From Akkermansia muciniphila ATCC BAA-835 (GTDB lineage: Bacteria > Verrucomicrobiota > Verrucomicrobiia > Verrucomicrobiales > Akkermansiaceae), in assembly GCF_000020225.1 (NCBI RefSeq), contig NC_010655.1, positions 1,980,001 through 2,012,000 on the forward strand: 32,000 bases of DNA. The letters run 5' to 3'. The notes below the pieces were generated by a model. It ran no database searches. It worked only from the letters and a program-made list of their open reading frames with translations, and was not told where the DNA came from. Of this stretch, positions 1,672 to 32,000 are shown one piece after another. Numbering within the stretch: position 1 is the stretch's first letter; every line of letters starts with the position of its first letter. Both the position numbers and the translations under genes were made by a program.

Positions 1672-1749
1672 CCTTTAACCGGATCAAGACCATTGAAAAA
1701 CAGCGGTTCCGATTTTGAGTCTTCTCCGCCCCAGGGGGCTGATAATATC

Positions 1750-3333: not shown

Positions 3334-3348
3334 TATTGCCAGGACTCC

Positions 3349-4077
3349 ATGCTGCTGCTCAATCCTATTGTTCGGAAAACATCTGAAAAGCGTTCCCGCT
3401 GGTGGACCAGGCTGGCCGGATTTGGCCTGTGGTCCGTACTCCAGCCCATTTGCATGAGCCTGAATATCCGTTCCATCAAGGAGGAGCATGATGATGTTTA
3501 TACGGCGCCTTTTCTGGTAGCCCTTTGGCACAACCGCACGATGGTGCCGGGTTATGCGTGGTCCCTGGCCCAGAAGCCGCTCAAGATGAGTGTGCTTACC
3601 AGCGCCAGCAAGGACGGCGCCCTGGTGGAGGCCGTATGCAGGCATTTTGGCCTGGGTGCCGTCCGGGGATCTTCCGGACGGCGGGGGGCTCTGGCCTACA
3701 TGGAAATGATGCGAAAGGTCCAGGAGGGGGACGTCTGCTTCTGTTTTACTCCGGATGGTCCGCGAGGCCCTATTTACGAAGTGCACCACGGTATTGTCAA
3801 ACTGGCCTCCCAGTCAGGGCTGCCCATCGTTCCCGTATGCATCGAATATGAAAGCTGCTGGCGTTTGAACAAGACCTGGGACCGCTATGCCATTCCCAAA
3901 CCGTGTTCCAACGTAAATATTCTATGGAAAAAGCGCCTGTTCATTCCTCCGGACGCGACGGATGAACAGGTGGCGGATTATGCCCGTCTTCTGGCCGGGC
4001 TGCTTGGCGAGGGGCTTCCGGACTTCCCGCCTCTTAACCAATCATTATTATGCAAATCATCGATGGAAAACAAGTAG
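3349..4077 (+). CDS. DUF374 / lysophospholipid-acyltransferase (LPLAT) superfamily protein
   Basis: The motifs [40 protein letters not shown] and FTPDGPRGP match my recollection of the DUF374 family pattern. The 3' end overlaps the folD start by 28 nt. Confidence 0.75.
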
Positions 4078-4925
4078 CTTCCCAGGTGCTGGAAGAGGTT
4101 GAAAGGGATATTGCCCGGCTCAGGGAACAGGGAATAACGCCCGGCTTGGCCGTGGTTCTGGTAGGGGAAGATCCCGCTTCCCAGGTATATGTAAATTCCA
4201 AGGTGAAAAAGTGTGCGGAGCTGGGGATGAATTCCCGTAAAATAGTTCTCCCTTCCGACGCCTCCCAGGAAGAACTGCTCCGGATTGTCCGTGAATTGAA
4301 CGTGGATCCTTCCGTCCACGGCATACTGGTGCAAAGCCCGCCTCCCCCCCATATCGACGAGGCGGCCGTGGTCCTGGAAATAGACCCTGCCAAGGATGTG
4401 GACGGCTTCCATCCGGAGAATGTCGCCAAGCTGGTGCTGGAAGATGAGACCGGTTTTGTACCCTGTACCCCTCTGGGCTGTATGAGGCTGTTAAAGGCCG
4501 CCGGCATTGAAACGGCGGGAGCGAATGCCGTGGTCATTGGCCGCAGCATGATTGTGGGCAAACCGATGGCGCATCTTTTGATGTCCAAACAGGCAAACGC
4601 TACCGTAACCGTGGCTCATTCCCGTACGAAAAACCTGCCGGAACTTTGCCGTTCCGCTGATATCATCGTGGCAGCCATAGGCCGGCCCGCTTTTGTGACG
4701 GCTGATTTTGTGAAAGACGGCGCCGTAGTGGTGGATGTGGGCATCAACCGCGTGGAAGATGCCTCCGCCAAGCGCGGCTACCGGATTGTGGGAGACGTAG
4801 CCTATGACGAGGTGGCTCCCAAGTGCCGGGCCATTACTCCCGTGCCCGGCGGCGTGGGGCCGATGACTATCGCCATGTTGATGGCTAATACGGTCAAAGC
4901 GTGCCGCCAGCAGACGGGAGCCTGA
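4050..4925 (+). CDS. folD: Bifunctional methylenetetrahydrofolate dehydrogenase / methenyl-THF cyclohydrolase
   Basis: A full-length 291-aa FolD-like sequence: [73 protein letters not shown]. Confidence 0.95.
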
Positions 4926-4992
4926 CGAAAATGCCGTGACGTCCGTTTTTCTTGTCAAATGAAGGAAAGTAGGGCAGTATTCAGTTACCATT

Positions 4993-5775
4993 ATGTCAAG
5001 TAAATTACTCGAAGGCAAAGTTGGTGTCGTAGTCGGCGTAGCGAACAAGCGCAGCATCGCGTTCGCAATTGCCAAGGCGTGGCATGAAGCGGGCGCAAAG
5101 CTCATCTTCAATTATCAGGGAGAACGTCTCAAGGACGGAGTTCTCAAGCTGATCCATGAGAACTTCGGAGAGGATGTTCCCGTTTATGATCTGGATGTCA
5201 GCAGTGATGAATCTGTTAACGCTTTCTTTGAAAGGGTCCGCCAGCATACGGATAAAGTAGATTGTCTGCTGCATTCCGTGGCTTTTGCCCCGAAGGAGGC
5301 TCTTGGCGGCAGTTTCCTGGAAACGGGCCGCGAGGCGTTCAAGATTTCCCTGGATATCTCCGCTTATTCCCTGGTAGCTCTTTCCCGCGCCGTGGAACCC
5401 ATGATGTCCGACAACGGCAGCATTTTGGCGATGTCCTATCTGGGATCCGAAAAAGTGGTTCCTAACTACAATCTGATGGGAGTTTCCAAAGCTGCCCTGG
5501 AAGCCTGCACCCGTTATCTGGCTTATGATTTGGGCCGTTCCCGCGGTATCCGTGTCAATTGCATCAGTGCAGGCCCCATGCAGACGCTGGCTGCTCGCGG
5601 CGTTTCCGGTTTTAACACCATGTTCAAGGTGTATGAGGAGCATGCCCCTCTGGGCCGTTCCTGCACGGGTGAGGAATTGGGAGCCACCGGCGTTTTCCTG
5701 GCCAGTGACGGCGCAGCCGCAATCACCGGGCAGGTGATTTACGTGGACGGCGGTTATCAGATCATGGGAATGTAA
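4993..5775 (+). CDS. fabI: Enoyl-[acyl-carrier-protein] reductase (NADH), FabI type
   Basis: A 260-aa SDR with FabI hallmarks: LEGKVGVVVGVANKRSIAF, HSVAFAP, YNLMGVSKAALEA, IRVNCISAGP, TGQVIYVDGGY. Confidence 0.95.
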   Translation: MSSKLLEGKVGVVVGVANKRSIAFAIAKAWHEAGAKLIFNYQGERLKDGVLKLIHENFGEDVPVYDLDVSSDESVNAFFERVRQHTDKVDCLLHSVAFAPKEALGGSFLETGREAFKISLDISAYSLVALSRAVEPMMSDNGSILAMSYLGSEKVVPNYNLMGVSKAALEACTRYLAYDLGRSRGIRVNCISAGPMQTLAARGVSGFNTMFKVYEEHAPLGRSCTGEELGATGVFLASDGAAAITGQVIYVDGGYQIMGM

Positions 5776-5806
5776 CGCGTTCCTTGCGGAAGCTTTCTTC
5801 CTGTTC

Positions 5807-5839
5807 ACAAGCCGTACCGGTTTTTCCGGTACGGCTTGT
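5807..5839. terminator. Bidirectional hairpin terminator between convergent fabI and lipid-kinase genes
   Basis: A perfect 14-bp stem, ACAAGCCGTACCGG (5807-5820) pairing with CCGGTACGGCTTGT (5826-5839), with a TTTTT loop. It lies between the fabI stop (5775) and the minus-strand stop at 5918. Confidence 0.7.
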
Positions 5840-5917
5840 TTACGGTTTCATGGAGAAGGTAAGGGGGGCTGGGGGCTTCCTGGCTTCTGTCGGAAAGGCC
5901 TGTTTCCCCGCTGCGTT

Positions 5918-6775
5918 TCAGGGGACGAACACTTTCAGCGAGCCGGGGCGGGTAATGCGGACCGGAGCGTTTCCTGCATAATCGCCGTCCAGTTCGCAGG
6001 AGGCCTGTCCGGCGGAGGTGACGGATCCCCCCGTCATCCGGATGTATTCAAAACTGCCGCTCCTCCGGGAATGAAAGCCCCCATGGACTGCGGCCATCAG
6101 GAATTCCCCGATGATGGAAGTAATGGAATGCCTGAATACTACTGCGTCCAGAAGGCCGTCACTGTTGTCCGCTTCAGCAAAGAAGTTAAGCGGCCCGCCA
6201 TACTTGCGTCCATTGCCGAAGATGATGAAGCGGCCTTCCAATACCCGGCCTTCATCTGTGGTCAGGGTGAGGTGCGGCTGTTTTTCCGTACAGACGCGGG
6301 CGCCGGCAATTACGTAGGCAAGGGCTTTCCATTTTTTTTTCATTTCCCATGTGGTCAGTTCTACGGCTCGGGCATCCGCGCCAATGCCCGCCATTTGGAG
6401 AAAAACTTGCCCGTTGAATGCGAACAGGTCCACATTTTTGGAACGCCCCGTGTTCAGAATGTGCAGGGCGTGGTCGAAATCCGGGCGGATTCCTATTTCC
6501 CGTGAAAAAACATTCATGGTACCCGCAGGGAAGGGGGCCAGCACCGTTTCCGTATTGCAGAGGGCCCTTGCCGCGATTCCCAGCGTGCCGTCTCCCCCAG
6601 CCACAGCCACGGCAGGCGCTCCGGAATTAGCCTGAGAAACCAAATGGTTCAACATGTCTTCCCTGCTTTCCGGTTCAATGACGTCAAAAAAATCCCGGTG
6701 CCGATCCAGCCAGCGGCGGAATCGTCCGGATCTGGCGCTGCGCGCCGTGTTATTGAAAAACAGGGGAATTTTCAT
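5918..6775 (-). CDS. Diacylglycerol-kinase-family lipid kinase (YegS/BmrU-like)
   Basis: 285 aa with the GGDGTLG nucleotide-binding motif (AVAGGDGTLGIAARA) and DAGK catalytic-domain layout. The start overlaps the upstream gene's stop as ATGA (6772-6775). Confidence 0.85.
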   Translation of the reverse strand: MKIPLFFNNTARSARSGRFRRWLDRHRDFFDVIEPESREDMLNHLVSQANSGAPAVAVAGGDGTLGIAARALCNTETVLAPFPAGTMNVFSREIGIRPDFDHALHILNTGRSKNVDLFAFNGQVFLQMAGIGADARAVELTTWEMKKKWKALAYVIAGARVCTEKQPHLTLTTDEGRVLEGRFIIFGNGRKYGGPLNFFAEADNSDGLLDAVVFRHSITSIIGEFLMAAVHGGFHSRRSGSFEYIRMTGGSVTSAGQASCELDGDYAGNAPVRITRPGSLKVFVP

Positions 6776-11872: not shown

Positions 11873-13726
11873 ATGAGCACAAACGACAAAACATCATCCG
11901 CCCCGACGAAAACCCGCATGACAGGAGCTGAAGTGCTCGTGGAATGCCTCGTGCGTGAAGGTGTAGACGTCGTCTTTGCCTATCCTGGCGGCGCCAGCAT
12001 GCCGATTCATCAGGCCCTGAGCCATCAGCCCAAGATACGGACCATCCTGCCCCGCCATGAACAGGGCGGGGCATTCGGCGCGGAAGGCTATGGCCGCGTT
12101 ACGGGCAAGGTGGGCGTTTGCATTTCCACTTCCGGCCCCGGCGCCACCAACATGATTACCTCCATTGCGGATGCTTATCTGGACTCCACGCCTCTGGTGG
12201 CGATTACGGCTCAGGTCATGCGCTCCTTGATTGGACGCGGCGCCTTCCAGGAAACAGACGTATTCGGCATGACCGCCCCTATCGTGAAGCACAGCTATCT
12301 GGTGACGGAACCGGAAGAACTGCCCCGTATCATCAAGGAAGCCTTCTACATCGCTTCCACGGGCCGTCCGGGCCCTGTGCTGATTGACATGCCCAAGGAC
12401 GTGCAGGAGGCCGTGTTCACACCGGACTTTGACATGGAGATGGATATTCCCGGCTACAACCCCGTGCTGCCCGTCCCTGCGGACAAGCTGGAAGAACTCA
12501 TCCCGTTGATTGAAAACGCCAGGCGGCCTGTCATTTACGCCGGCGGCGGCATCATTTCTGCGGAAGCTTCCGGGGATCTTCTGGAATTTGCGGAACGTTC
12601 CCAGATTCCTGTGGCGACCACCCTGATGGGCATTGGCGCCATGCCGGAAACCCACCCTCTTTCCCTGCGTTGGCTGGGCATGCACGGAGCCGTGTTTGCG
12701 AATAACGCCGTGAATGAAGCGGATCTGGTTATTGCCCTGGGCGCCCGGTTTGACGACCGCGTAACAGGCGCCGTCAATATGTTCTGTCCGGAATCCACGA
12801 TCGTTCACATTGATATCGACGCCAGCGAGATCAATAAAAACAAGAAGGTGGCGTATCCCATCCGCGCAAACGTGAAGGACGCCCTCCAGGTGCTCAACTC
12901 CGCTCTGGCCGCAAAAGGCTGGGAGCGCAAATCCTCCGGCTACACCCGCACTCCTGAATGGTTCGGCGTGATTGACAGTTGGAAAAAACAGTACCCCTTC
13001 TCCTATGAGGACCGCAAGGGGTATATCGCCCCGCAGGCTGTCATTGAGGAGCTCTACCGCCAGACGGCGGACAAGGACCCCATCATCTGCACGGGGGTGG
13101 GCCAGCATCAGATGTTTGCCGCTCAATTCTTCAAATTTGACAAGCCCCGCCGTCTGGCCACTTCCGGCGGTTTGGGAACCATGGGCTATGGACTTCCCGC
13201 CTCCATGGGAGCGTGCCTGGCTTATCCGGACAGACTGGTCGTGAATATTGACGGGGACGGTTCCATGCTCATGAATATTCAGGAGCTGGCAACCATTCAT
13301 GTGGAGCGTCTGCCCGTCAAATGCATTATTCTGAACAACCAGCACCTGGGCATGGTGGTCCAATGGGAAGATTTGAAGTATGATTCCAACCGGGCCCAAA
13401 CCTTCCTGGCGGACCCGCACGACAATTATGATCCTACCCATAAAACGGAAGATGTCATCTACCCGAACTATCCGCTTATTTGTGCCGGATTCGGCGTCAA
13501 GTGCGAGCGTGTGCTTCGCATAGAGGAGCTTCCGGCGGCTATCACCCGGATGATTGAATCCCCTGAGGCCTATGTCCTGGACGTCATGGTTCCCCATGAT
13601 GTGCATGTGCTGCCGATGATTCTGGGGGGCATGAGCTACAAGGATGTGATTCTGGAACGTATTGCCGGGGATGGTTCCGCCAAAAAGGCGTCTGAACTGG
13701 GCAAGGAAATCCCGACTGCCCTGTAA
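11873..13726 (+). CDS. ilvB: Acetolactate synthase (acetohydroxy-acid synthase) large catalytic subunit
   Basis: TPP-enzyme architecture: GAEVLVECLVREGVDVVFAYPGGA, HEQGGAFGAEGYGRVTGKVGVCISTSGPGATN, GLGTMGYGLPASMGA, DGDGSMLMNIQEL. ATG 11873 (MSTNDK) is in frame with the longer ORF. Confidence 0.93.
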   Translation: MSTNDKTSSAPTKTRMTGAEVLVECLVREGVDVVFAYPGGASMPIHQALSHQPKIRTILPRHEQGGAFGAEGYGRVTGKVGVCISTSGPGATNMITSIADAYLDSTPLVAITAQVMRSLIGRGAFQETDVFGMTAPIVKHSYLVTEPEELPRIIKEAFYIASTGRPGPVLIDMPKDVQEAVFTPDFDMEMDIPGYNPVLPVPADKLEELIPLIENARRPVIYAGGGIISAEASGDLLEFAERSQIPVATTLMGIGAMPETHPLSLRWLGMHGAVFANNAVNEADLVIALGARFDDRVTGAVNMFCPESTIVHIDIDASEINKNKKVAYPIRANVKDALQVLNSALAAKGWERKSSGYTRTPEWFGVIDSWKKQYPFSYEDRKGYIAPQAVIEELYRQTADKDPIICTGVGQHQMFAAQFFKFDKPRRLATSGGLGTMGYGLPASMGACLAYPDRLVVNIDGDGSMLMNIQELATIHVERLPVKCIILNNQHLGMVVQWEDLKYDSNRAQTFLADPHDNYDPTHKTEDVIYPNYPLICAGFGVKCERVLRIEELPAAITRMIESPEAYVLDVMVPHDVHVLPMILGGMSYKDVILERIAGDGSAKKASELGKEIPTAL

Positions 13727-13757
13727 GAGCGAGGCAAGCTTCTTCTATTGAGCCTTA

Positions 13758-13789
13758 AACAGGAGCCGTCCGTAAGGGCGGCTCCTGTT
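13758..13789 (+). terminator. Hairpin terminator after ilvB
   Basis: AACAGGAGCCG (13758-13768) pairs with CGGCTCCTGTT (13779-13789). The stem extends inward to a GTAA tetraloop. It sits about 30 nt after the ilvB stop. There is no clear T-tract, so its efficiency as an intrinsic terminator is uncertain. Confidence 0.6.
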
Positions 13790-14214
13790 GCATGGCGGCG
13801 CAAGTGGAATGCAGGTCAGTTGACTGCCGTTAGGGTGGCAGCAAGGCATGTATATAGATCCGGATATTCCTGTTTTCCGGTAGGTGAATTCCTGGTTTTG
13901 TGAAGGAATGAGGAAGATGTTTCTGGACGCAGTAGAAAAGAACGGTTAGCATCAATGAGCCAAATTGAGTGCAAGCTGGCTCGGACGTGAAGTAACTGAG
14001 GTTTTCTAAGATGATGCCACATCGGATGCTGCGCTTGCGCCAACCTCAAGCTCACAGAAAATTGCCGGGAATCCAGCGCATGCTGTAAGCGATTGAGAAA
14101 TGTAGCTTAACAGAAAAATTCCCTTTGATCAGGCCTGGCCGCATCCGGTTCTTGCATCAGGTTGGCGCAAGACCTTTGTTGCATGTTTGATACTCAAACC
14201 GTATTCGTCAGGCC

Positions 14215-14246
14215 GTCGCACCCACACGGGTGCGTGAATTGAAGTT
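14215..14246 (+). repeat. Solitary CRISPR-like repeat resembling the type I-C repeat family
   Basis: GTCGCACCCACACGGGTGCGTGAATTGAAGTT has the GTCGC head, a 6-bp GC-rich hairpin (GCACCC/GGGTGC, 4-nt loop) and an ATTGAA tail. That is the layout of I-C repeats as I recall them (GTCGCGCCCCGCACGGGCGCGTGGATTGAAAC). I found only one copy, with no second repeat at spacer distance and no cas genes. Confidence 0.55.
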
Positions 14247-14440
14247 TTTATGTATGTTTGACATATTTAAATACGAATCGTTGTTTTATTAAGGGAGGGA
14301 GATATATTGAAATAAGGGTATTTGTTGCTGAAGAATGAAAGATGGATTTTTGTGTTTTTTGTTGAATGCAATATTTTGACGGAGGAAGTTGGTTTTTCGG
14401 CTGATAGAGGAGAAATGACGGGAAGTATTATTGGACGAAT

Positions 14441-15274
14441 ATGAAAAGATATTGTCTGGTTTACGGGTTATGTTTGTGCCTGTTCATGGGGATATTTTCA
14501 TGTATTCCGGAAGCTCCGGAGCATAAGACGGAAAAAGATGCCTCAGCCATTGTTCTGGATGAGGATTCGGATATAATCTGGAGGAATTTTTCTTTGGGCC
14601 GCATTTCATTCGATGATAAGGCTCCGCATAGTAAAGGTTCCCGCATTTTTCGCCGATTGATTCCAGATACGGAGGTTTATATCCGTCAGTTGTCCCGTAT
14701 TGTTCTCCATACGTTGTATGAGAGTCCTGAAGAATATATTATTCCTGTCCACCATTTGCGTTTCATGCTGGAGGATACCGATGGAGTTGCCTGCAAATGG
14801 GGAGGAAATGGAGAGGTTGCCATTTCCTGCAGCACGCGCCATATTGAGAGTTTGTTTAAAGATGATGATGATGCGGCGAAGGTTTATTTTGAAATTCGAG
14901 GAGTCTTGTTGCATGAGCTAACCCATGTTTACCAACAGGAACCCCAGGGGATAGGTTCCTATGGAACGAACAGGGAATTTAGAGCATTTATCGAGGGGAT
15001 GGCTGATGCCGTTCGTATAGCTAACGGGGGATTCCATAGAGGAGCCTACCGTCCTACGGGCGGCAGTTATATGGATGGCTACCTCCATGCAGGTTATTTT
15101 TTTGTGTGGCTGCGGGATTATAAAGACCCTGAATTTCTACGCAAATTTAACCGTAGTGCTCTTGAGGTCGTTCCATGGTCGTTTGATGGCGCCGTTAAAT
15201 ATGCCTTGGGCAGCGAGTATCATATTGATGAGTTGTGGCGGGAGTATCAAAGGGTGATGGAAGAGGAAAAATAG
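14441..15274 (+). CDS. Lipoprotein, BSP-family (peptidase of plants and bacteria, PF04450-like) putative zinc metallopeptidase
   Basis: Signal peptide plus lipobox (LCLFMGIFSC), an HExxH motif in LLHELTHVYQQ, and a downstream FIEGMADAVRIANG. This resembles the basic-secretory-protein family (HE.THVWQ ... EGIADYVR). G+C is visibly lower than in neighbouring genes. Confidence 0.65.
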   Translation: MKRYCLVYGLCLCLFMGIFSCIPEAPEHKTEKDASAIVLDEDSDIIWRNFSLGRISFDDKAPHSKGSRIFRRLIPDTEVYIRQLSRIVLHTLYESPEEYIIPVHHLRFMLEDTDGVACKWGGNGEVAISCSTRHIESLFKDDDDAAKVYFEIRGVLLHELTHVYQQEPQGIGSYGTNREFRAFIEGMADAVRIANGGFHRGAYRPTGGSYMDGYLHAGYFFVWLRDYKDPEFLRKFNRSALEVVPWSFDGAVKYALGSEYHIDELWREYQRVMEEEK

Positions 15275-15547
15275 AGGCGCTTCATAGTTCAGGAGTTTTG
15301 ATGGGATATCTAGACAGGAGGCTGGAATAGAAGGAATGGCCGTGGAGAGCGTTCTTAAGGCGTGGGTATTTCTCGTTTACCATTTTTGAAAAGCAAGGTC
15401 TGAGTGGCCCGGCAGAAAGACAGGATGCCTTGGACAGAGGGATGGGAAACGGTGAGGAGGAGCGAGAAGCACCCATGCTGGAAACGGGAGGCAGGGATAT
15501 TCTTTCGGCTGGACAAACGGAGGGACGGAAGACATTCTAGGCGTTCC

Positions 15548-26207: not shown

Positions 26208-27308
26208 TCAGGAGACCGGCGGTTCTTCCGGCGGTTTCGTTTCTTCAATGACCTTGGCTGGCGTCAGGGCCCAGAAGCGCGTGGCCGTTTGCGGAGAGAT
26301 GCCTTTCATGTTCAAGTACCGTGTGCGGAGCAGGGAGGAGGAGCGGTGCCCCATTTCCATTTGCAACAGGTTGTAGTCCTTGAAGTGCTTGGCGTGGTAG
26401 CTGGCGTAGGTGTGCCGCAGGCAGTCCGGCACCCATGATTTTTTTCTTCCTCCCCAGCCGGCTTTTTTCCGGATTTTGCGCCACTTGATTGTCCACCCTT
26501 TCGGGCAGATGGGAGTTCCGGGGCCGGGTTTGGTCCTGTCACGGCAGAATTTGAGCCATTTGGCGAGCACGGGCAGGATGGTGACGTGTCTGGCGCCTCC
26601 GGTTTTGGTATGCTTGGAGTTCAGAATGATACAGCCGTCGCGGAGAGCGATGTTTTCCCAGAGCAGGCGTTCCACTTCCTGCGGGCGGATTCCTGCAAAG
26701 ATCATCAGCGCCGCTCCAGCTGCGCAGCTTCCGTCAAATTCTTCCATGGCCGCCTTGAGAAGCTGAGTTATTTCCTTCAGCGTCAGAGCGGGGATTTCCT
26801 GCTCCTGCAGAAAAGGCGTGTCTACACGGAGGATGGGATTCTCGTCACACCATCCGCGTTTGACGGAGAACGAGAAAATTCCGCTCAAGATGAGCCTCGC
26901 TTTGTGCCTCTGCCGGGATGTGGTAAAGGTATTCATCAGGATGTTCTGGCATTCCTCCACGCTCAGGTTGCGCAGGGAGGTGTGTTCCAGTTCCGGATTG
27001 CTCTTTTTAAGCTTGTGGATGATGCTCCTGATGTCCGTCAGCGTCCGGGGACGGCGGTGGCTTTTGGAACGCAGGCATTCCACGGCCGCCGTGCCGAAAC
27101 TGACGGTTTGATGTTTGTTTTTAATGGCGTTCAATCCCAGGGAGACGACTTCCCGGCACCGGGTAATGGTACAGATTTCATCTCCAAGGGCTTCCTTGAT
27201 TTCTAATACCAGCCTTGCAGCCTGGATCAGGGTGACTGATTCCCCCTCCAGAAGTGCGGCTCCGACATATTTCAATTTGTTTGTATTCGGTGCTTTTTTC
27301 ATGTTCAT
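26208..27308 (-). CDS. Tyrosine recombinase / phage-type integrase
   Basis: The C-terminal catalytic domain has R (AGIRPQEV), H-x-x-R (CLRHTYAS), H (MGHRSSS) and Y (RTRYLNM). The ORF opens at GTG 27329, and ATGs occur at 27308 and 27302. No tRNA gene or direct-repeat att pair is visible nearby. Confidence 0.88.
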   Translation of the reverse strand: MNMKKAPNTNKLKYVGAALLEGESVTLIQAARLVLEIKEALGDEICTITRCREVVSLGLNAIKNKHQTVSFGTAAVECLRSKSHRRPRTLTDIRSIIHKLKKSNPELEHTSLRNLSVEECQNILMNTFTTSRQRHKARLILSGIFSFSVKRGWCDENPILRVDTPFLQEQEIPALTLKEITQLLKAAMEEFDGSCAAGAALMIFAGIRPQEVERLLWENIALRDGCIILNSKHTKTGGARHVTILPVLAKWLKFCRDRTKPGPGTPICPKGWTIKWRKIRKKAGWGGRKKSWVPDCLRHTYASYHAKHFKDYNLLQMEMGHRSSSLLRTRYLNMKGISPQTATRFWALTPAKVIEETKPPEEPPVS

Positions 27309-27625
27309 TTCTCGTGTTTGTCCAAACACGGTTTTAATGAAAAAGGCTATCCTTATAATGGGGAAAACTTATGCTTTCCACTAGAAAACGCGTAACCGTC
27401 AAGGATATGTTGTTACTTATGTTTTCTTTGAACCGGCCGGAAAATCAAAGTTTCTGATGGTGCAGGAACCGAAAATGTTAGAAAGCGCGGCTCCCTGTGC
27501 TGAATGTCAAGATGGACGTGACTTGTCCGGCATGAGTATATTTCTGTTGGAAGAGGGGTAAAGGAACGGCCGGATGAAAGTATTTTACATGGCCGGACGT
27601 ATGGGATATACTGCTTCACTGTATC

Positions 27626-28043
27626 ATGAACATCAGAATTCATTCTTTCAACGTATCATGTGCCGGCCTTTGCTGCGTATTGGGGTCTTTTTTCGCGGCG
27701 GACGCCCGTGAGATTTATTCCCTGAACGGTTCCTGGGATTTCAGTTTTAACGGGAAGCCTGCTGAAAAAGTGACGGTGCCCCATACATGGAACGCAGAGG
27801 ATGCCGCCAATGGTGCTCAGGGGAAGCGGGAAGACGCCAAATCCGTCAACAGTGACGCCTACCGCCGCGGGCCGGCCGTTTATTCGCGCACGCTTCCGGT
27901 GGAGCCCAGGCCGGGCAAGAGGTATTTCATCCGCGGCGGGGGAGCCAGCATTGTTTCCGAGGTTTCCGTCAATGGGAAGCCTGCCGGCAGCCATGAGGGG
28001 GCGTTTACGGCTTTCTGTTATGAAATAACGCCCCTTTTGAAAA
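27626..28043 (+). pseudogene. N-terminal fragment of a glycoside hydrolase family 2 gene (beta-galactosidase/glucuronidase-like) interrupted by a transposon
   Basis: Signal peptide, then the GH2 sugar-binding-domain pattern (SLNGSWDFSF, VTVPHTWNAED, YFIRGGGASIVSEVSVNGKPAGSHEGAFTAFCYEITPLLK). Composition switches abruptly at 28044. The frame resumes after the right-hand target duplication (31987-32000) to read ITPLLKKGSNT. Confidence 0.85.
28036..28043. repeat. Left copy of the 8-bp target-site duplication TTTGAAAA
   Basis: Identical to 31979-31986. It directly abuts the terminal inverted repeat. The match cannot be extended by a single base on either side. Confidence 0.8.
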
Positions 28044-28068
28044 GGGATTTATATACTTAAGTTAGGCG
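28044..28068 (+). repeat. Left terminal inverted repeat (IRL)
   Basis: GGGATTTATATACTTAAGTTAGGCG compared with the reverse complement of 31954-31978 (GGGCCTTATATACTTGACTTCGGTT): 19 of 25 positions match, including 13 of the first 15. Confidence 0.75.
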
Positions 28069-28330
28069 CTTTTTAATTGCTTCTAAGAAGCCCCTTTGAG
28101 TTTTTTTACAAGTTCTAATGCGTCTTCCATTGTTATGAACATGCGCATGAAATTTGATTGGAAAGACTTGAAATTATACTTTTTATAAAATTTTTCGGAA
28201 TTATCCCTTTTAATCTTGTTACCCCTCTCCTACTTCGTAGGGAAAGAGAATATAGATATTTGCTGGAAGAGGTTGTGTCGTTTTTGATTTTGTCAAATAA
28301 TAAGAAATTGGTATTATTTCGAAAAGAAAA

Positions 28331-28365
28331 GCGCTACCTCACTTTTTCATGAGGTAGTGCTTTTT
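28331..28365. terminator. Bidirectional rho-independent terminator at the end of the cargo operon
   Basis: An 11-bp stem, GCGCTACCTCA pairing with TGAGGTAGTGC (one G-U pair), with an 8-nt loop. TTTTT follows on the plus strand and TTTTCTTTTC on the minus strand. Confidence 0.7.
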
Positions 28366-28384
28366 AACTTGTAAAGAGGAGAGG

Positions 28385-28473
28385 CTTCCAAAGACGTATG
28401 TTACACTATCGTGTAGTTCAAAAGTGCGTGTGTTATACATACTACACGATAGTGTAACATACGTCTTTGGAAG
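28385..28473. repeat. Perfect 33-bp inverted repeat with a 23-nt spacer (giant hairpin/cruciform)
   Basis: 28385-28417 (CTTCCAAAGACGTATGTTACACTATCGTGTAGT) is the exact reverse complement of 28441-28473. It lies between the stop of the 215-aa gene (28501) and the terminator at 28331-28365. Confidence 0.9.
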
Positions 28474-28500
28474 AAACAATATTGAAAAATGTCATTGCCT

Positions 28501-29148
28501 TTAAAAGCAAGCGATAACGCCTTCAACAATACTTTGTAATTTCGGACAACCGACTGAAATAGTAATGAGAGAAGAAAGAATCACCGAAGCAATCCACAGT
28601 AAAGCCTTCAAACCAAATTTAACACAATATTTCCTTTTTGCCCAATTAATATCTGATATTTTAGAATTAATATGGTCGTATAGCTCAGTATATTGATTAT
28701 AGGCGTCTTCGTATTTTTTCAGAGATTTTGTTTTATCGATTCCTTCTATTTTTTTAGCCTCTCTAACTGAGAAAATAGCTTCATTGTGCAATTTTTTGTA
28801 AGTGACGTAAAATTGTCCATTATCTACTACAAATAAATCGACACGCTTAGTCCTTTTCTCAAAATTTTTAACATAATCAGATAAATGAATATTAAGGTAT
28901 TTATAACAATCCAAAATTATTCTCCAAATATGTCCTTCCGCTTTTGCAATTTCATCTTTAATAGTTTCGGGCTTTAAATCAGGAATATAGCATCTAGCTA
29001 TATGGTCATGTAAAGCACGAATTTCATTAAAAAGTTCTATAGGAAATTTTTCGTATTTCGCTTCTATATCCGCTATCAATAATTTGATAGTATTATTATA
29101 TGTCGTATAGAGATTCTCTATACGTGATAAATAATCAGAGGAAAGCAT
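28501..29148 (-). CDS. Hypothetical 215-aa helical protein with one C-terminal transmembrane helix (candidate effector of the cargo module)
   Basis: An intact ORF. The ATG lies one base after the stop of the upstream 82-aa ORF. The hydrophobic helix FGLKALLWIASVILSSLITISVG is near the C-terminus. An R-x4-H motif (RALHDH, residues 44-49) is present. I recognise no family. Confidence 0.7.
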   Translation of the reverse strand: MLSSDYLSRIENLYTTYNNTIKLLIADIEAKYEKFPIELFNEIRALHDHIARCYIPDLKPETIKDEIAKAEGHIWRIILDCYKYLNIHLSDYVKNFEKRTKRVDLFVVDNGQFYVTYKKLHNEAIFSVREAKKIEGIDKTKSLKKYEDAYNQYTELYDHINSKISDINWAKRKYCVKFGLKALLWIASVILSSLITISVGCPKLQSIVEGVIACF

Positions 29149-29149
29149 T

Positions 29150-29398
29150 TTATATTTTAGCTATTTTTTTATCAAGATTAAATCTTAAAAATCTTGAAAG
29201 AGCTAAATATACAGAACCTCTTCCAACTAGTGGAAATCTATTGCGTTTTGTGTCTAATTTTAGTTTCTTGCCAATTTTAGACTCTACAGCCGCATCTAAT
29301 TCAGAGGCATCCATCTCTAATATTCTAGATACAGGCACTCCAACAGAACGAGCAATCGCCTGCTTAGTTTCCTCATTCAAAGATATTTTAGGTAACAT
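29150..29398 (-). CDS. Hypothetical 82-aa protein, possible N-terminal HTH; translationally coupled to the 215-aa gene
   Basis: An intact ORF. The N-terminal segment ISLNEETKQAIARSVGVPVSRIL resembles a helix-turn-helix. Its stop TAA (29152-29150) is separated from the downstream ATG (29148) by 1 nt. Confidence 0.6.
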   Translation of the reverse strand: MLPKISLNEETKQAIARSVGVPVSRILEMDASELDAAVESKIGKKLKLDTKRNRFPLVGRGSVYLALSRFLRFNLDKKIAKI

Positions 29399-29487
29399 GA
29401 TGCTCTCTACAATAAGTACCTCTTCAAAATGGATTATTCATAAAATATGTCAACTAATATTACACGATATTATCTATATGACGCATA

Positions 29488-29631
29488 TTATCCATTGATT
29501 GACGATTTTTCAACCTTCTCCTCCACAGTCCCCAAAATCCATTCCTCCACCGCCAATCCTTCTTTGACGGCCCGCTTGACCATCTCATTTAGAGTAGAAT
29601 TTTTCATTCGAACGACGATTTGTGATTCCAA
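29488..29631 (-). CDS. Small ribbon-helix-helix-like ORF missing from the ORF track (47 codons from TTG 29631, or 39 from ATG 29607)
   Basis: My translation is (M)ESQIVVRMKNSTLNEMVKRAVKEGLAVEEWILGTVEEKVEKSSING. This fits a beta-strand followed by helices, as in CopG/Arc/HicB-type antitoxins. It also aligns with the C-terminal tail of the upstream 118-aa protein (IPNKILNLAVRAAVQKDMSVEEFVVWATEGAARKIVE). Confidence 0.45.
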   Translation of the reverse strand: MESQIVVRMKNSTLNEMVKRAVKEGLAVEEWILGTVEEKVEKSSING

Positions 29632-29669
29632 TTCCGAATTGGGTAATCGACATTCATCAGGTGTACAAG

Positions 29670-29692
29670 GAGTCTCTCACGTTGAGAGTCTC
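29670..29692. promoter_or_regulatory. Palindrome GAGTCTCTCA-cgt-TGAGAGTCTC between the HTH gene and the small RHH ORF (operator or attenuator hairpin)
   Basis: 10-bp arms with one mismatch and a 3-nt spacer. It lies about 40 nt upstream of the TTG of the RHH-like ORF and 40 nt downstream of the HTH gene stop. Confidence 0.4.
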
Positions 29693-29731
29693 TAAATACC
29701 TAGATAGCCACTCATTTCCGAGCCTTTCTTT

Positions 29732-30088
29732 CTAATTACACCTATTCCCTTCCACAATTTTCCTCGCCGCCCCTTCTGTGGCCCACACCACAAATTCCTC
29801 AACACTCATATCCTTCTGAACCGCCGCTCGAACGGCCAAATTGAGAATTTTGTTAGGGATAGGAACGCTCAGTTGAGAAACAAAGTCATTGTTGGAAGCA
29901 GGTTCCCGGCCTTTCATGTAGCGGGAAATCAGAATCTGAACGTGTTTAGGAATACTGCCCTTGGAAAAATAGTTATCAATGGTGCTTCTGGCTAGACCTA
30001 GGGAGGAAGCAAGTTCGGTGCGGGAAACTTTGTTCTCTTCTAACCACCTTCCCAACGTCTGAATATCCAGCGGGCGTTTCTCGTCCAT
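29732..30088 (-). CDS. Transcriptional regulator: N-terminal Cro/XRE-type HTH fused to an RHH-like C-terminal tail
   Basis: 118 aa. The HTH is VSRTELASSLGLARSTIDNYFSKGSIP. The C-terminal segment resembles CopG/HicB-antitoxin-type sequences. It is the first gene of the minus-strand cargo operon and faces a divergent operator-rich promoter. Confidence 0.75.
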   Translation of the reverse strand: MDEKRPLDIQTLGRWLEENKVSRTELASSLGLARSTIDNYFSKGSIPKHVQILISRYMKGREPASNNDFVSQLSVPIPNKILNLAVRAAVQKDMSVEEFVVWATEGAARKIVEGNRCN

Positions 30089-30090
30089 GC

Positions 30091-30210
30091 GGATAATTTT
30101 CTCCTATCAGGAGGGCAAATGGAAGAATCCGGGTTATTTATGATTGACAAAATCCTATTAGGATAATAATAGCTCTTTTATTGGACAATATTACATCTCA
30201 TTAGGATAAT
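30091..30210. promoter_or_regulatory. Divergent promoter region with three operator-like palindromes (consensus TCCTATYAGGA)
   Basis: The sites are TCCTATCAGGA (30102-30112), TCCTATTAGGA (30153-30163) and the degenerate TCTCATTAGGA (30197-30207). GGATAAT recurs at 30091, 30161 and 30204. Sigma70-like elements TTGACA (30144-30149) and TTGGAC (30181)...GATAAT (30205) overlap the sites. Confidence 0.6.
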
Positions 30211-30249
30211 TCTTTGTCCTCTCTAAGGAATCCAAAACCTAAAAACATC

Positions 30250-30873
30250 ATGAACACGAAAACCATCATCACCAGTTTGGGGCTTATGGGCCTCTCATGT
30301 ACCGCACAGGCCGCCTCTAGTGACCCTTGGAACTATTATAGAATGGGAGGGAATTATAGTTCCGCATATTCAACACGGTATGATTCCAATTTTGGAATGA
30401 GCATTAGAGGAATGTACGGATTCCATTCGGGGAATGATTATGGAATAGATATGCCAGACCTGTACGGTGCCCAATTAGGACTTCACGCTAACATTCCAGC
30501 GGGTTCTGTTTTCCATGAATTATCTTTCAATCTCGGCGCGCTTACAGGTTCTAAAACCTACGAAGGGGAGTTGAAATGGAAACAACAGGTATTCCCATTT
30601 ACCGCTGGATATTCTTTTAATGTCCCCTTATCTGATTCTGCCACTTTCTATTTAGGCGGCAAAATAGGCCTTCATTATTATAAACAGGAACTCTCTGGAG
30701 GTGGAGGAAAAGTATCTGAGTCTGATTCTAGTGGAACTTACTCGGCATTAATCGGTTTCAAATTTGCTGTTGCAGAAAAAACAGACATCGTTATTGGATA
30801 TGAAATAACGAAATACTGGTCAGATGTTGACCCATACCACTTTATCACAGTTGGCTTTAGCTGGTCATTCTAA
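30250..30873 (+). CDS. Small outer-membrane beta-barrel protein (OmpX/OmpW-like, OMP_b-brl type)
   Basis: Signal peptide MNTKTIITSLGLMGLSCTAQA. The sequence has alternating hydrophobic/aromatic strands, Gly/Ser-rich loops, and a C-terminal beta-signal ending in Phe (ITVGFSWSF). ATG 30250 was chosen within the longer ORF that starts at 30214. Confidence 0.75.
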   Translation: MNTKTIITSLGLMGLSCTAQAASSDPWNYYRMGGNYSSAYSTRYDSNFGMSIRGMYGFHSGNDYGIDMPDLYGAQLGLHANIPAGSVFHELSFNLGALTGSKTYEGELKWKQQVFPFTAGYSFNVPLSDSATFYLGGKIGLHYYKQELSGGGGKVSESDSSGTYSALIGFKFAVAEKTDIVIGYEITKYWSDVDPYHFITVGFSWSF

Positions 30874-30894
30874 CTTTCGGCGGTGAATTAACTG

Positions 30895-30920
30895 GCCTCC
30901 TTCCTTTCGGGGAAGGGGGC
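30895..30920 (+). terminator. Hairpin terminator after the beta-barrel gene
   Basis: The 10-bp stem pairs 30895-30904 with 30911-30920 (GCCTCCTTCC / GGAAGGGGGC, one G-U pair). The loop is TTTCGG, and a T-rich stretch (GATTCTTTGATTT) follows. Confidence 0.5.
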
Positions 30921-30971
30921 GATTCTTTGATTTGCATGACTTAGGCCGTCGCCTTGCTCGCAAGGTGGCGG

Positions 30972-31913
30972 TCAATTCTTCAATTCGGCGTAAGTAATTC
31001 TCGTCGAAAATGCTTTAGCCATAAGAGAATCCAATCTTACCCATGTGTGGATTTTCACATTTCCCTCATTCAACCGATACGCAAATTCATCTACATATCT
31101 CTGTAAATGTTTTGTGCTGAATGAATGGTAGATTCCATAGAATCCTCTCTTCAAAACCGCCCATACGCTCTCGATGCCGTTAGTATGGGCCATTCCGTCA
31201 ACATACTGCTTGGCACTATGATTCACCACCTGATGATTGAACTGTGATTCTTTGTAAGAAGCATGTTCATCAGTAACCAGAACGGAATCCCGGCTCAAAT
31301 ACTTATTCAAAACTTGGTGAACTGTATCTCTTGAAGTGTCGGGAATAACCCTTGCTAAAACCTTTCCTGCTCTGGCTCTCATTCCTAAAACCGCTGTCTT
31401 TCCAACAATTCCGCGCCCAGCCTTCAATTTCTGAGATTCGTGCTTATTGGATTCCTTGCCTCCAATATACACCCCATCAGCTTCAACAATTCCAGATAGA
31501 AAGCCGTTATTGTCATCGTCATCATGGTTGGAATTGCATGCTTCCCTAATCCTTTGAAGCATGAACCACGCCGTTTTTTGCGTAACCCCAATTTCCTTGG
31601 AAAGTTGCATGGAGCTAATACCCTTTCTGGAAGTCACTACTAAATAGAAGGCAAAAATCCATTTATGAAGTGGAACATGGCTTCTCTCAAAAATAGTTCC
31701 AGTCCTCACAGTATAAACTTTCCCGCACTCCCCGCATTCAAAATACCCCTCAACCCCGTTCCTCTTTACTCTATACTGTTTTTCGCTTTTCCCGCAGAAC
31801 GGGCAAACTACCTTATCGCCCCACCGCTTTTCCTCTAAATACTTTTTAGCTGATTCCTCATTGGGGAATTTTTCAAAAAGCTCAAAAAGTGAAATAGTTA
31901 AGCGGTCGTTCAT
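30972..31913 (-). CDS. IS1595-family (ISXO2-like) DDE transposase
   Basis: An N-terminal transposase zinc-ribbon (CPFCGKSEKQY...YFECGECGKVYTVRTGTIFERSHVPLHKW) is followed by a DDE domain (GIVEADGVYIGGKE, LVTDEHASYK, HTNGIESVWAVLKRGFYGIYHSFSTKHLQRYVDEFAYRLN). ATG 31913 is preceded by AAGGAGG. Confidence 0.92.
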   Translation of the reverse strand: MNDRLTISLFELFEKFPNEESAKKYLEEKRWGDKVVCPFCGKSEKQYRVKRNGVEGYFECGECGKVYTVRTGTIFERSHVPLHKWIFAFYLVVTSRKGISSMQLSKEIGVTQKTAWFMLQRIREACNSNHDDDDNNGFLSGIVEADGVYIGGKESNKHESQKLKAGRGIVGKTAVLGMRARAGKVLARVIPDTSRDTVHQVLNKYLSRDSVLVTDEHASYKESQFNHQVVNHSAKQYVDGMAHTNGIESVWAVLKRGFYGIYHSFSTKHLQRYVDEFAYRLNEGNVKIHTWVRLDSLMAKAFSTRITYAELKN

Positions 31914-31953
31914 GGGTGCCTCCTTAGTATGGCTAATTAATAGCATACGGAGA

Positions 31954-31978
31954 AACCGAAGTCAAGTATATAAGGCCC
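31954..31978 (-). repeat. Right terminal inverted repeat (IRR)
   Basis: The reverse complement GGGCCTTATATACTTGACTTCGGTT matches IRL. It lies about 40 nt upstream of the transposase start. Confidence 0.75.
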
Positions 31979-31986
31979 TTTGAAAA
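31979..31986. repeat. Right copy of the 8-bp target-site duplication TTTGAAAA
   Basis: Identical to 28036-28043. The downstream bases AAGGCTCCAATACG continue the GH2 reading frame. Confidence 0.8.
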
Positions 31987-32000
31987 AAGGCTCCAATACG

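Follow-up and report, generated by a model that had tools for sequence, protein, structure and literature searches.

What do the small hypothetical genes carried by a transposon of the mucin-degrading bacterium Akkermansia muciniphila do, and which of them belong together? The transposon in question, of the IS1595 family, lies near the right end of a 32,000-nucleotide (nt) stretch of strain ATCC BAA-835 (contig NC_010655.1, positions 1,980,001 to 2,012,000; called the window below, with position 1 its first letter). An initial annotation of this DNA had read four co-directional open reading frames (ORFs) inside the transposon as one cargo operon, and as a candidate for a new system of the toxin-antitoxin, abortive-infection, superinfection-exclusion or addiction kind. 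We found that the conserved core is two genes, encoding proteins of 82 and 215 amino acids (aa), and that both protein families are undescribed in the libraries and literature searched. The pair may be an autonomous mobile two-gene conflict module, either toxin-antitoxin-like or abortive-infection, the proposal best supported here, for which we judge the case and the counter-case to be about equally strong. The four minus-strand ORFs (118, 47, 82 and 215 aa) are all present where they had been placed:

28501-29148, minus strand: gene of the 215-aa protein (the large gene), Amuc_1661 of A. muciniphila MucT, ACD05479.1; predicted tail-anchored, all-helical product, the presumed effector.
29150-29398, minus strand: gene of the 82-aa protein (the small gene), with an N-terminal three-helix domain and an RGSVYL motif; presumed antitoxin, regulator or sensor.
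29488-29631, minus strand: 47-codon ORF with a TTG start, part of the relic in the next line.
29488-29658, minus strand: regulator-tail relic, the ribbon-helix-helix (RHH)-like C-terminal tail of an ancestral 127-aa regulator; homology breaks at 29659.
29732-30088, minus strand: gene of a 118-aa regulator with a helix-turn-helix (HTH) and an RHH-like tail, ACD05481.1.

The 215-aa and 118-aa products are identical to the two database entries named, all are annotated as hypothetical, and three of the four ORFs are genuine genes with homologues elsewhere.

By running six-frame profile searches with both families, we surveyed 82 loci outside Akkermansia, 10 of them metagenomic places and 72 from species genomes, for the pairing of the small and large genes. 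In the first three genomic contexts, a gene of 78-95 aa lay directly upstream of the large gene, its product 38-61% identical to the 82-aa protein of the window. Over the whole survey, 81 of 82 loci had the small gene immediately 5' of the large gene: 80 were found by profile and one more (L078) has a divergent 73-aa copy in which the RGSVYL motif is still present. Only one locus, L044, has an intact large gene with no detectable small gene. Spacing was tight as well, with a median gap of 5 nt (67 loci), 15 nt or less in 82% and an overlap in 27%; in the window the gap is 1 nt, the ATG of the 215-aa gene (29148) following one base past the stop codon of the 82-aa gene (29152-29150), as had been noted. 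Moreover, the pairwise distances of the small and the large proteins are correlated (r = 0.80), a value that none of 999 Mantel permutations reached. The pairing is thus near-universal, the two genes being inherited together, tightly spaced and co-directional, which bears out the earlier suggestion that the two are coupled on a mobile element and co-occur beyond it. The same suggestion did not hold for the operon as a whole: HTH and RHH genes accompany the pair in none of the 82 loci outside Akkermansia (L001-L082), where no homologue of the 118-aa or the 47-aa protein was found. A variant order was also seen in about ten loci, where two tandem diverged large paralogues follow the small gene (L050, L052, L058, L059, L063, L065, L073-L075 and L078, from Parabacteroides, Bacteroides and related genomes).

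The large protein belongs to a sizeable family. An indexed search returned at least 130 homologues at 40-55% identity, and an exhaustive profile search (E<=0.001) brought the family to 1,167 representatives of 50%-identity clusters. Most of these come from Bacteroidota of human and animal guts. The closest relatives outside Akkermansia are 50-60% identical proteins of Bacteroidales metagenomes. All 150 proteins among the matches listed are 118-254 aa long, and none of these 150 has a large extra domain. The AlphaFold2 model built from the family alignment (predicted local distance difference test score, pLDDT, 95.6; predicted template-modelling score, pTM, 0.82) is entirely helical, with helices at residues 4-32, 37-52, 60-99, 105-134, 139-162, 164-200 and 202-214. 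Model and family alignment agree with the earlier description of an all-helical protein with a C-terminal hydrophobic helix: an N-terminal domain of about 175 aa is followed by a hydrophobic helix at about 178-200 and a tail of about 14 aa. Among 236 aligned members (28-53% identical to the window protein), the hydrophobic segment occurs at about 85% of the length in 95%, with a net charge of +3.9 before it and about 0 over the tail of about 13 aa. Read by established topology rules (the positive-inside rule), this charge pattern predicts a tail-anchored protein with its domain in the cytoplasm.

Fifteen residues are conserved in 94-100% of the 236 members (Y17, E29, P36, N41, E42, R44, H49, H73, R76, D80, K83, G111, F113, A131 and E135), and ten of them form a near-invariant polar cluster (E29, N41, E42, R44, H49, H73, R76, D80, K83 and E135). 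Such a cluster resembles an active site more than it does a docking surface, and a reasonable guess would be a site of the phosphoryl-transfer or nuclease type made of E42, R44, H49, H73, R76 and K83.

Neither protein could be placed in a described family. For both, nothing significant was found in Pfam, NCBIfam, PADLOC or PHROGs, DUF1804 being the sole Pfam listing up to E=10 for the large protein. In PADLOC-DB v2.0 (5,027 models) the large protein had no match at all, and the best for the 82-aa protein was PbeC at E=0.015, which is not significant. PDB sequence-profile searches with both families gave chance-level matches only. With Foldseek, the large model had no hit at E<=0.001 in the PDB (350,542 chains) or BFVD, the best being generic long-helix proteins; at the same threshold the small model had none in the PDB, with villin headpiece and acyl carrier protein on top. 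Nor did the literature searched contain anything relevant on a tail-anchored toxin or defence family like the large protein, or on this Akkermansia IS1595 element. These results are in line with the initial annotation, which had recognised no family for either protein, and the libraries and structure searches revealed no homology of either to a structural or metabolic family. One candidate was tried and dropped, an archaeal pair of domains of unknown function: DUF2096_N was listed for 7 of 43 large proteins (best E=0.0025) and DUF3198 for 14 of 56 small ones (best E=0.0015), but the family consensus matches neither model and the DUF3198 match inspected covers residues 3-30 in a single sub-family.

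Does the polar cluster make the large protein a HEPN ribonuclease (RNase)? The initial annotation had pointed out RALHDH at residues 44-49, an R-x4-H motif, as a weak HEPN hint. The motif is real, R44 and H49 being each conserved in 99% of the 236 members and N41 and E42 in 97-99%. The protein could then be a membrane-tethered HEPN-type RNase, with R44-x4-H49 contributing to a composite site in a dimer and the small protein as its antitoxin, which would be a special case of a toxin. Several features would suit this idea: the domain is all-helical and predicted to lie in the cytoplasm at the inner membrane, the context is that of conflict systems, membrane-associated HEPN proteins with cytoplasmic HEPN domains exist (Anantharaman et al. 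2013, PMC3710099), and a second conserved His/Arg pair, H73 and R76, would be apt for phosphodiester chemistry. However, the motif sits in short helix 2 (residues 37-52) with four further helices after it, whereas a HEPN motif opens the last helix of a four-helix up-down bundle. No HEPN-clan Pfam model was found for the window protein or in the 25 most frequent families of 43 members scanned (E<=10), no HEPN entry is among the Foldseek top 50 against the PDB, and hhalign of the large family with a neighbouring HEPN_AbiU2 protein gave a probability of 0.5%. In addition, PMC3710099 describes three membrane-HEPN architectures, none of which has a single C-terminal anchor after an N-terminal domain; the large protein has one C-terminal helix, no Zn ribbon and no WP helix. 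Because the defining features other than the motif fail, we did not file the large protein under HEPN: membership was rejected on motif position, profiles, structures and the hhalign comparison, and we regard a HEPN-type RNase as distinctly improbable.

The small protein has at least 300 homologues and no Pfam domain. Its AlphaFold2 model shows three short helices over residues 9-42 (pLDDT about 82), whereas the C-terminal half, which carries the invariant R60-G61-S62 of the RGSVYL motif, is modelled at a pLDDT of 51-61. The HTH proposed earlier for the N-terminus is plausible; matches to HTH families are weak (KorA E~0.1, HTH_26 E=0.06), and no HTH family or HTH antitoxin structure gave a significant match. 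Its modelled layout, in which a flexible tail that would bind the partner follows a folded N-terminal domain, is reminiscent of a type II antitoxin.

The element that carries the pair has these further parts:

28032-28066, no strand: left terminal inverted repeat, 35 nt, arms 77% complementary; truncates a family 2 glycoside hydrolase (GH2) gene.
30152-30167 and 30195-30210, no strand: paired 16-nt repeats, 43 nt apart, candidate operators in the divergent promoter region of regulator and porin genes.
30214-30873, plus strand: porin-family passenger gene, outer-membrane beta-barrel (Pfam OMP_b-brl E=1.6e-20; cluster names).
30972-31946, minus strand: IS1595-family transposase, zinc ribbon plus ISXO2-like DDE domain (PF12762 E=3.8e-48; PF12760 E=1.2e-15; NF033547, transpos_IS1595, E=1.5e-60).
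31956-31990, no strand: right terminal inverted repeat, 35 nt; homology to other copies runs to 31978.

The element is an IS1595-family transposon with mosaic passenger cargo. The initial annotation had placed the four ORFs inside a transposon, and they do lie in a low-GC insert (30-44% in the block with the four ORFs against about 56% in the host) that is bounded by the 35-nt imperfect inverted repeats and holds the transposase; a similar end sequence is also present in a sister copy (L083). It occurs at no fewer than five different transposase-side flanks among Akkermansia contigs (L083, L084, L086, L088, L089 and L090) and has therefore moved. The right flank inside the window is 10 nt, in which no clean direct repeat (target-site duplication) is readable. 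The left part of the element is variable, and some copies have an extra 73-aa gene past the terminator, such as L083 8064-8285, on the opposite strand, which matches phrog_27431, a phage protein family with no assigned function (E=9e-22); the window copy lacks this gene.

Akkermansia contigs carry the element in two versions. Both share window positions 28439-29659, with the large gene, the small gene and the 47-aa ORF, which are 97% identical in nearly all copies. Positions 29660-30827, from the 118-aa gene across the intergenic region into most of the porin gene, are swapped in most copies for an unrelated cassette: a 127-aa regulator with a 248-aa porin (L083, about 5680-6743) instead of the 118-aa regulator with a 219-aa porin, between flanks 94-97% identical. 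The pattern looks like a mosaic transposon with a swappable surface-protein module.

The swap accounts for the 47-codon ORF, which had been taken for an independent RHH-like paralogue. It shares 71% identity with the tail region of the 127-aa protein, which in sister copies is intact, with an HTH half and a tail (Arc-like repressor PHROG match, E=7e-5). Since the HTH half is gone through cassette replacement and an extra G shifts the frame at the 3' end, the ORF is a recombination relic and not a gene. The 118-aa protein is the full-length counterpart of the 127-aa protein, as an HTH with an RHH-like tail had implied; both domain assignments stay under curated thresholds in the Pfam scan (HTH_3 at 19.9 bits for a cut-off of 23, TacA1 at E=0.2, and a CI-repressor match also sub-threshold), and PHROG transcriptional-regulator matches were found. 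With the 47-codon ORF a relic and the 118-aa gene exchanged together with a divergent porin gene, the four-gene unit falls apart into the pair and its companions. The 16-nt repeats contain the palindrome ATCCTA-T-TAGGAT (ATCCTATTAGGAT), two copies at 30152-30210, which may be operators. Given that the 118-aa gene travels with the porin gene and that the palindromes lie in the promoter region these two share, the regulator would seem to control the porin cassette at least as much as the pair.

Could the pair then serve the transposon, by transposition control, target immunity or stabilisation of IS1595, with no role of its own? In Akkermansia it is always within the IS1595 element, and there is a second IS1595 association at an unrelated locus, the orphan large gene of L044 (62-2477, a Syntrophomonadaceae metagenome-assembled genome), where an IS1595-family transposase matching that of the window (E=4.6e-50) lies 0.9 kb upstream. 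However, L044 is the only one of 82 non-Akkermansia loci with an IS1595-type transposase detectable by the window transposase, and most loci have no transposase among their nearest neighbours. In GC content, too, the pair (30-33%) stands apart from the other genes of the element (regulator, porin and transposase, 42-48%) and from the host, which suggests cargo captured from a low-GC donor. Hence we hold a transposon-serving pair to be very improbable. Among insertion sequences of the IS1595 family with passenger genes, the window element has the usual zinc ribbon and ISXO2-like DDE transposase, terminal inverted repeats, several sites in one genus and cargo unrelated to transposition; it differs in that this cargo is a mosaic of an exchangeable porin and regulator cassette in two versions and the low-GC pair.

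Outside Akkermansia, the pair was found in 72 of 185,579 species genomes, a figure that is a pattern-based lower bound. Its hosts are mostly Bacteroidia, with some Lachnospiraceae, Blautia, Oscillospiraceae, Treponema, Sphaerochaetaceae, Planctomycetota, Ignavibacteria and Desulfovibrionaceae. No relative was detected in 2.9 million IMG/VR viral contigs, 50,697 INPHARED phage genomes or 72,556 PLSDB plasmids, which weakens two of the roles first envisaged, plasmid addiction and superinfection exclusion. The 219 nearest neighbours include no family more than four times, so the pair is self-contained. Its contexts are accordingly diverse. It is found on integrase-bearing elements (L001 and L093, the latter with PIN_12 and DUF4238 cargo), beside HEPN_AbiU2 (L094), in a cluster with PAPS_reduct and SNF2 (L100) and amid capsule operons (L003-L010, for example), with FimA-family neighbours four times. 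It also stands alone between rpsA and the gene of a pyridoxal-phosphate enzyme, or between ruvA and a peptidase gene (L098 and L099).

That the pair would be found near defence genes and on integrative elements, as the initial annotation had expected, is borne out by single loci (L093-L096 and L100 for the former; L001 and L093 for the latter). PADLOC matches (BrxD, a DRT reverse transcriptase, components of type I and type IV restriction and of MADS) were obtained for about 16 of the 219 nearest neighbours, a raw count by which the association with defence genes is suggestive only. Two capsule loci, L095 and L096, which are otherwise identical, hold different inserts at one position (1200-5100), a few kb upstream of the pair: an OLD-family ATPase with a UvrD helicase (Gabija-like) in L095, and PNP_UDP_1 with AAA_35 in L096. 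This is a defence hotspot in a polysaccharide operon.

The capsule and fimbrial neighbours raise another explanation, that the pair is a non-toxic regulatory or accessory unit in which the small HTH-like protein is sequestered at the membrane by the tail-anchored one or else regulates it there. Its output might be surface structures or a stress response, and its patchy distribution would reflect dispensability. Copies in or beside capsular-polysaccharide or fimbrial loci (L003-L010 and L095-L097, together with the four FimA neighbours), the HTH-like three-helix domain, the large gene without a small gene in L044 and the intact state of most Akkermansia copies are in favour of it; so is the precedent of the C-tail-anchored ElaB, which is reported to act in stress tolerance, not as a toxin (PMC6389858). 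On the other hand, neighbour functions are inconsistent among the nearest neighbours, and the pair sits between unrelated housekeeping genes, on a transposon and on integrative elements, which is difficult to square with a regulator that lacks a fixed target. Furthermore, the capsule loci hold defence inserts in the same slot, so the link may be to the hotspot and not to capsule function, and the invariant charged cluster would be more at home in an active site than on a docking surface. We therefore consider a purely regulatory pair unlikely, if the least unlikely of the alternatives. The large protein is unrelated in sequence to the C-tail-anchored ElaB and YqjD and twice as large. Its gene is sporadic and mobile, not a core stress gene, and in all but one locus has a small partner gene coupled to it.

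A further line of evidence comes from the alleles of the pair in Akkermansia, where the large gene has been inactivated repeatedly. The large-protein cluster contains at least six independent truncating alleles: (i) a 43-nt deletion (P0388, 165-aa product, 15 contigs), (ii) Q112* (P0389, 8 contigs), (iii) a -1 slip in the A7 tract of codons 132-134, in two allele backgrounds (P0392 and P0393), (iv) a +1 slip in the A7 tract of the large gene (P0396), (v) a junction at residue 118 (P0391) and (vi) a truncation within the anchor (P0397). In the small-gene cluster, only the last four residues are lost, via that gene's own A7 tract, the other variants being start-site or contig-end artefacts. The A7 tracts lie at about 28746-28755 in the large gene and about 29161-29170 in the small gene (codons 77-79), with a TAG in the -1 frame (AAAAAAATAG); their slips could be simple mutational hot spots or a crude on/off switch.

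One of these alleles is fixed in a laboratory stock:

28639-28680, plus strand: site of the 43-nt deletion of the laboratory stock, a frameshift in the large gene ahead of the membrane anchor.

The deletion was reported at nt 2008639 in the Wageningen MucT founder stock relative to the reference and ascribed to subculturing (PMC13055324). The 42-nt string printed there matches window positions 28639-28680 exactly, which places the window at nt 1980001-2012000 of the MucT genome and identifies the 215-aa gene as Amuc_1661. The same paper gives the Amuc_1661 product as 261 residues, whereas the ORF and ACD05479.1 have 215.

Decay of this kind suggests one more alternative: in Akkermansia the pair might be decaying, functionless foreign cargo, its wider conservation reflecting a function unrelated to conflict. 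The several truncated alleles, one of them fixed in the laboratory stock with no reported phenotype, agree with this, as does the fact that Amuc_1661 was not detected in proteome data (PMC13055324). The Akkermansia large-gene alleles differ by 2 synonymous and 5 non-synonymous substitutions, too few for an informative dN/dS or to show purifying selection. Against it, the large gene is intact in about 97% of the Akkermansia contigs on record, the main intact alleles being on 780 and 458 contigs and the truncated ones on 2-15 each. Residue conservation throughout the family at 28-53% identity and strict pairing, moreover, mean that a function is kept elsewhere. Functionless cargo is thus an account that we find hard to credit, about on a par with the HEPN-type RNase.

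Other features of the element concern the expression of the pair and the site of insertion:

27626-28060, strand not assigned: 5' part of the GH2 gene, a 144-aa ORF with a Glyco_hydro_2_N match.
28334-28357, minus strand: terminator-like hairpin followed by a T run, 3' of the large gene; likely 3' end of the transcript.
28385-28473, minus strand: stem-loop in the 3' untranslated region of the large gene, with a perfect 33-bp stem and a 23-nt loop.
29485-29513, minus strand: sigma-70-like promoter candidate upstream of the 82-aa gene (TTGAAA, 17-nt spacer, TAATAT).

The promoter-candidate stretch is kept in both element variants. The hairpin region 28385-28473 has a fold energy of -77 kcal/mol (z = -12.6). 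Sister copies (L083 and L084) have a shorter, loop-less palindrome with three arm differences, each compensated on the opposite arm, and the window copy has a 41-nt insertion that lengthens the stem. The hairpin may act as an mRNA stabiliser or as a DNA palindrome. An Rfam scan of 27000-32000 returned microRNA models only, on the long hairpin, which are spurious for a bacterium. In one contig (L085) the element is repeated head-to-head as a perfect palindrome, most probably because of misassembly at the long hairpin and not through an inverted duplication. At its left end, the transposon appears to interrupt a GH2 glycosidase gene of this mucin-degrading bacterium, the remainder of which would lie past the window end. 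Just left of this gene, at 26208-27329, is a 373-aa tyrosine recombinase (Phage_integrase, E=6e-12) of host-like GC. Farther away, at about 13500-15500, the window has a second GC dip (43-47% against about 56%) with strong positive GC skew, possibly another foreign insert.

How well, then, does a mobile two-gene conflict module account for the pair? In its favour are the near-obligate pairing, the co-divergence of the two proteins, the self-contained and sporadic occurrence across phyla, carriage on mobile elements, neighbours from conflict systems, truncations that fall mostly on the large gene, and the effector-like and antitoxin-like features of the two proteins. With type II toxin-antitoxin systems, the pair shares a layout of co-directional genes, -4 to +15 nt apart in most loci, an upstream product that is small and modelled as a folded helical N-terminal domain before a flexible C-terminal half, sporadic horizontal spread by transposon or integrative carriage or solitary insertion, and inactivating mutations in the downstream gene. 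It differs from them in having no homology to toxin or antitoxin families (Pfam, NCBIfam, PADLOC and PHROGs) and in that no copy was found on plasmids. Unlike a small soluble enzyme or a short hydrophobic peptide, moreover, its putative toxin has about 200 aa, a tail anchor in the membrane and a large helical domain in the cytoplasm. Likewise, membrane-effector defence systems (CBASS, Pycsar, retrons, RexAB and Csx28 of type VI-B CRISPR) are compact, combine a membrane-inserted effector with a soluble partner, have defence-gene neighbours (here AbiU2, Gabija-like, BrxD, DRT and restriction genes) and travel on mobile elements. In contrast to these, the pair is unmatched by the 5,027 PADLOC models, has a single C-terminal anchor where they have N-terminal or multi-pass helices, has an effector with a large conserved cytoplasmic domain and a catalytic-looking polar cluster, and has no signal-generating enzyme as partner; Csx28 and other solved effectors were not retrieved by the structure search with the large model. 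The kind of system would thus be a familiar one, a compact two-gene conflict module with a membrane effector on mobile DNA.

In such a module, the two genes would be co-transcribed and translationally coupled. The 215-aa product would be inserted in the cytoplasmic membrane by its C-terminal helix, with the helical domain facing the cytoplasm. Left unrestrained, the Glu/Asn/Arg/His/Lys site would harm the cell, either enzymatically at the membrane, on a nucleic acid, a nucleotide or a lipid head-group, or by forming oligomers that disturb the membrane. It would be kept in check by the 82-aa product, whose flexible RGSVYL segment would dock on the large protein and whose three-helix N-terminal domain might bind DNA or sense the trigger. 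Loss of the small protein, on loss of the element, phage infection or stress, could then release the effector. In A. muciniphila, an IS1595-family transposon, which also holds a porin gene and an HTH/RHH regulator of its own, may have picked up the pair from a donor of low GC content.

Several observations weigh against a conflict module. First, neither protein resembles a known toxin, antitoxin or defence protein in Pfam, NCBIfam, PADLOC or PHROGs. Second, the plasmid collection contains no copy of the module, which means that its niche is not classical plasmid addiction, and the neighbours at many loci are housekeeping or capsule genes only. Third, the orphan large gene of L044 implies that the large protein is not necessarily lethal alone. 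Fourth, most Akkermansia contigs keep the large gene intact and the failure to detect Amuc_1661 in proteomes also counts here; the truncated alleles could be neutral decay of useless cargo and not selection against a toxic gene. Some asymmetry between large and small gene is expected by chance because the large gene is 2.6 times longer, and asymmetric decay is a prediction of a toxin/antitoxin pair, not proof of one. We propose the stronger version of a conflict module more tentatively, and with rather more doubt than belief: that the pair founds a new toxin-antitoxin or anti-phage defence system, widespread in gut Bacteroidota and carried in the A. muciniphila type strain by an active IS1595 transposon, in which a tail-anchored effector with a new fold and a new Glu/Asn/Arg/His/Lys catalytic site would be restrained by a small three-helix partner.

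If the pair does work as a toxin-antitoxin or defence module, the large proteins would form a new family of effectors, at least 1,167 sequence clusters strong, for whose fold and conserved site there is no solved counterpart. In the A. muciniphila type strain, a probiotic under development, two genes annotated as "hypothetical" would gain a function, and the partial loss of Amuc_1661 in a laboratory stock would be explained. Given that the type strain has genetic tools and transposon libraries, and that candidate catalytic residues are already defined, the proposal is directly testable. Finally, an IS1595-family element would be shuttling a conflict module and a porin cassette among chromosomal sites, which would bear on genome stability and strain variation in Akkermansia.

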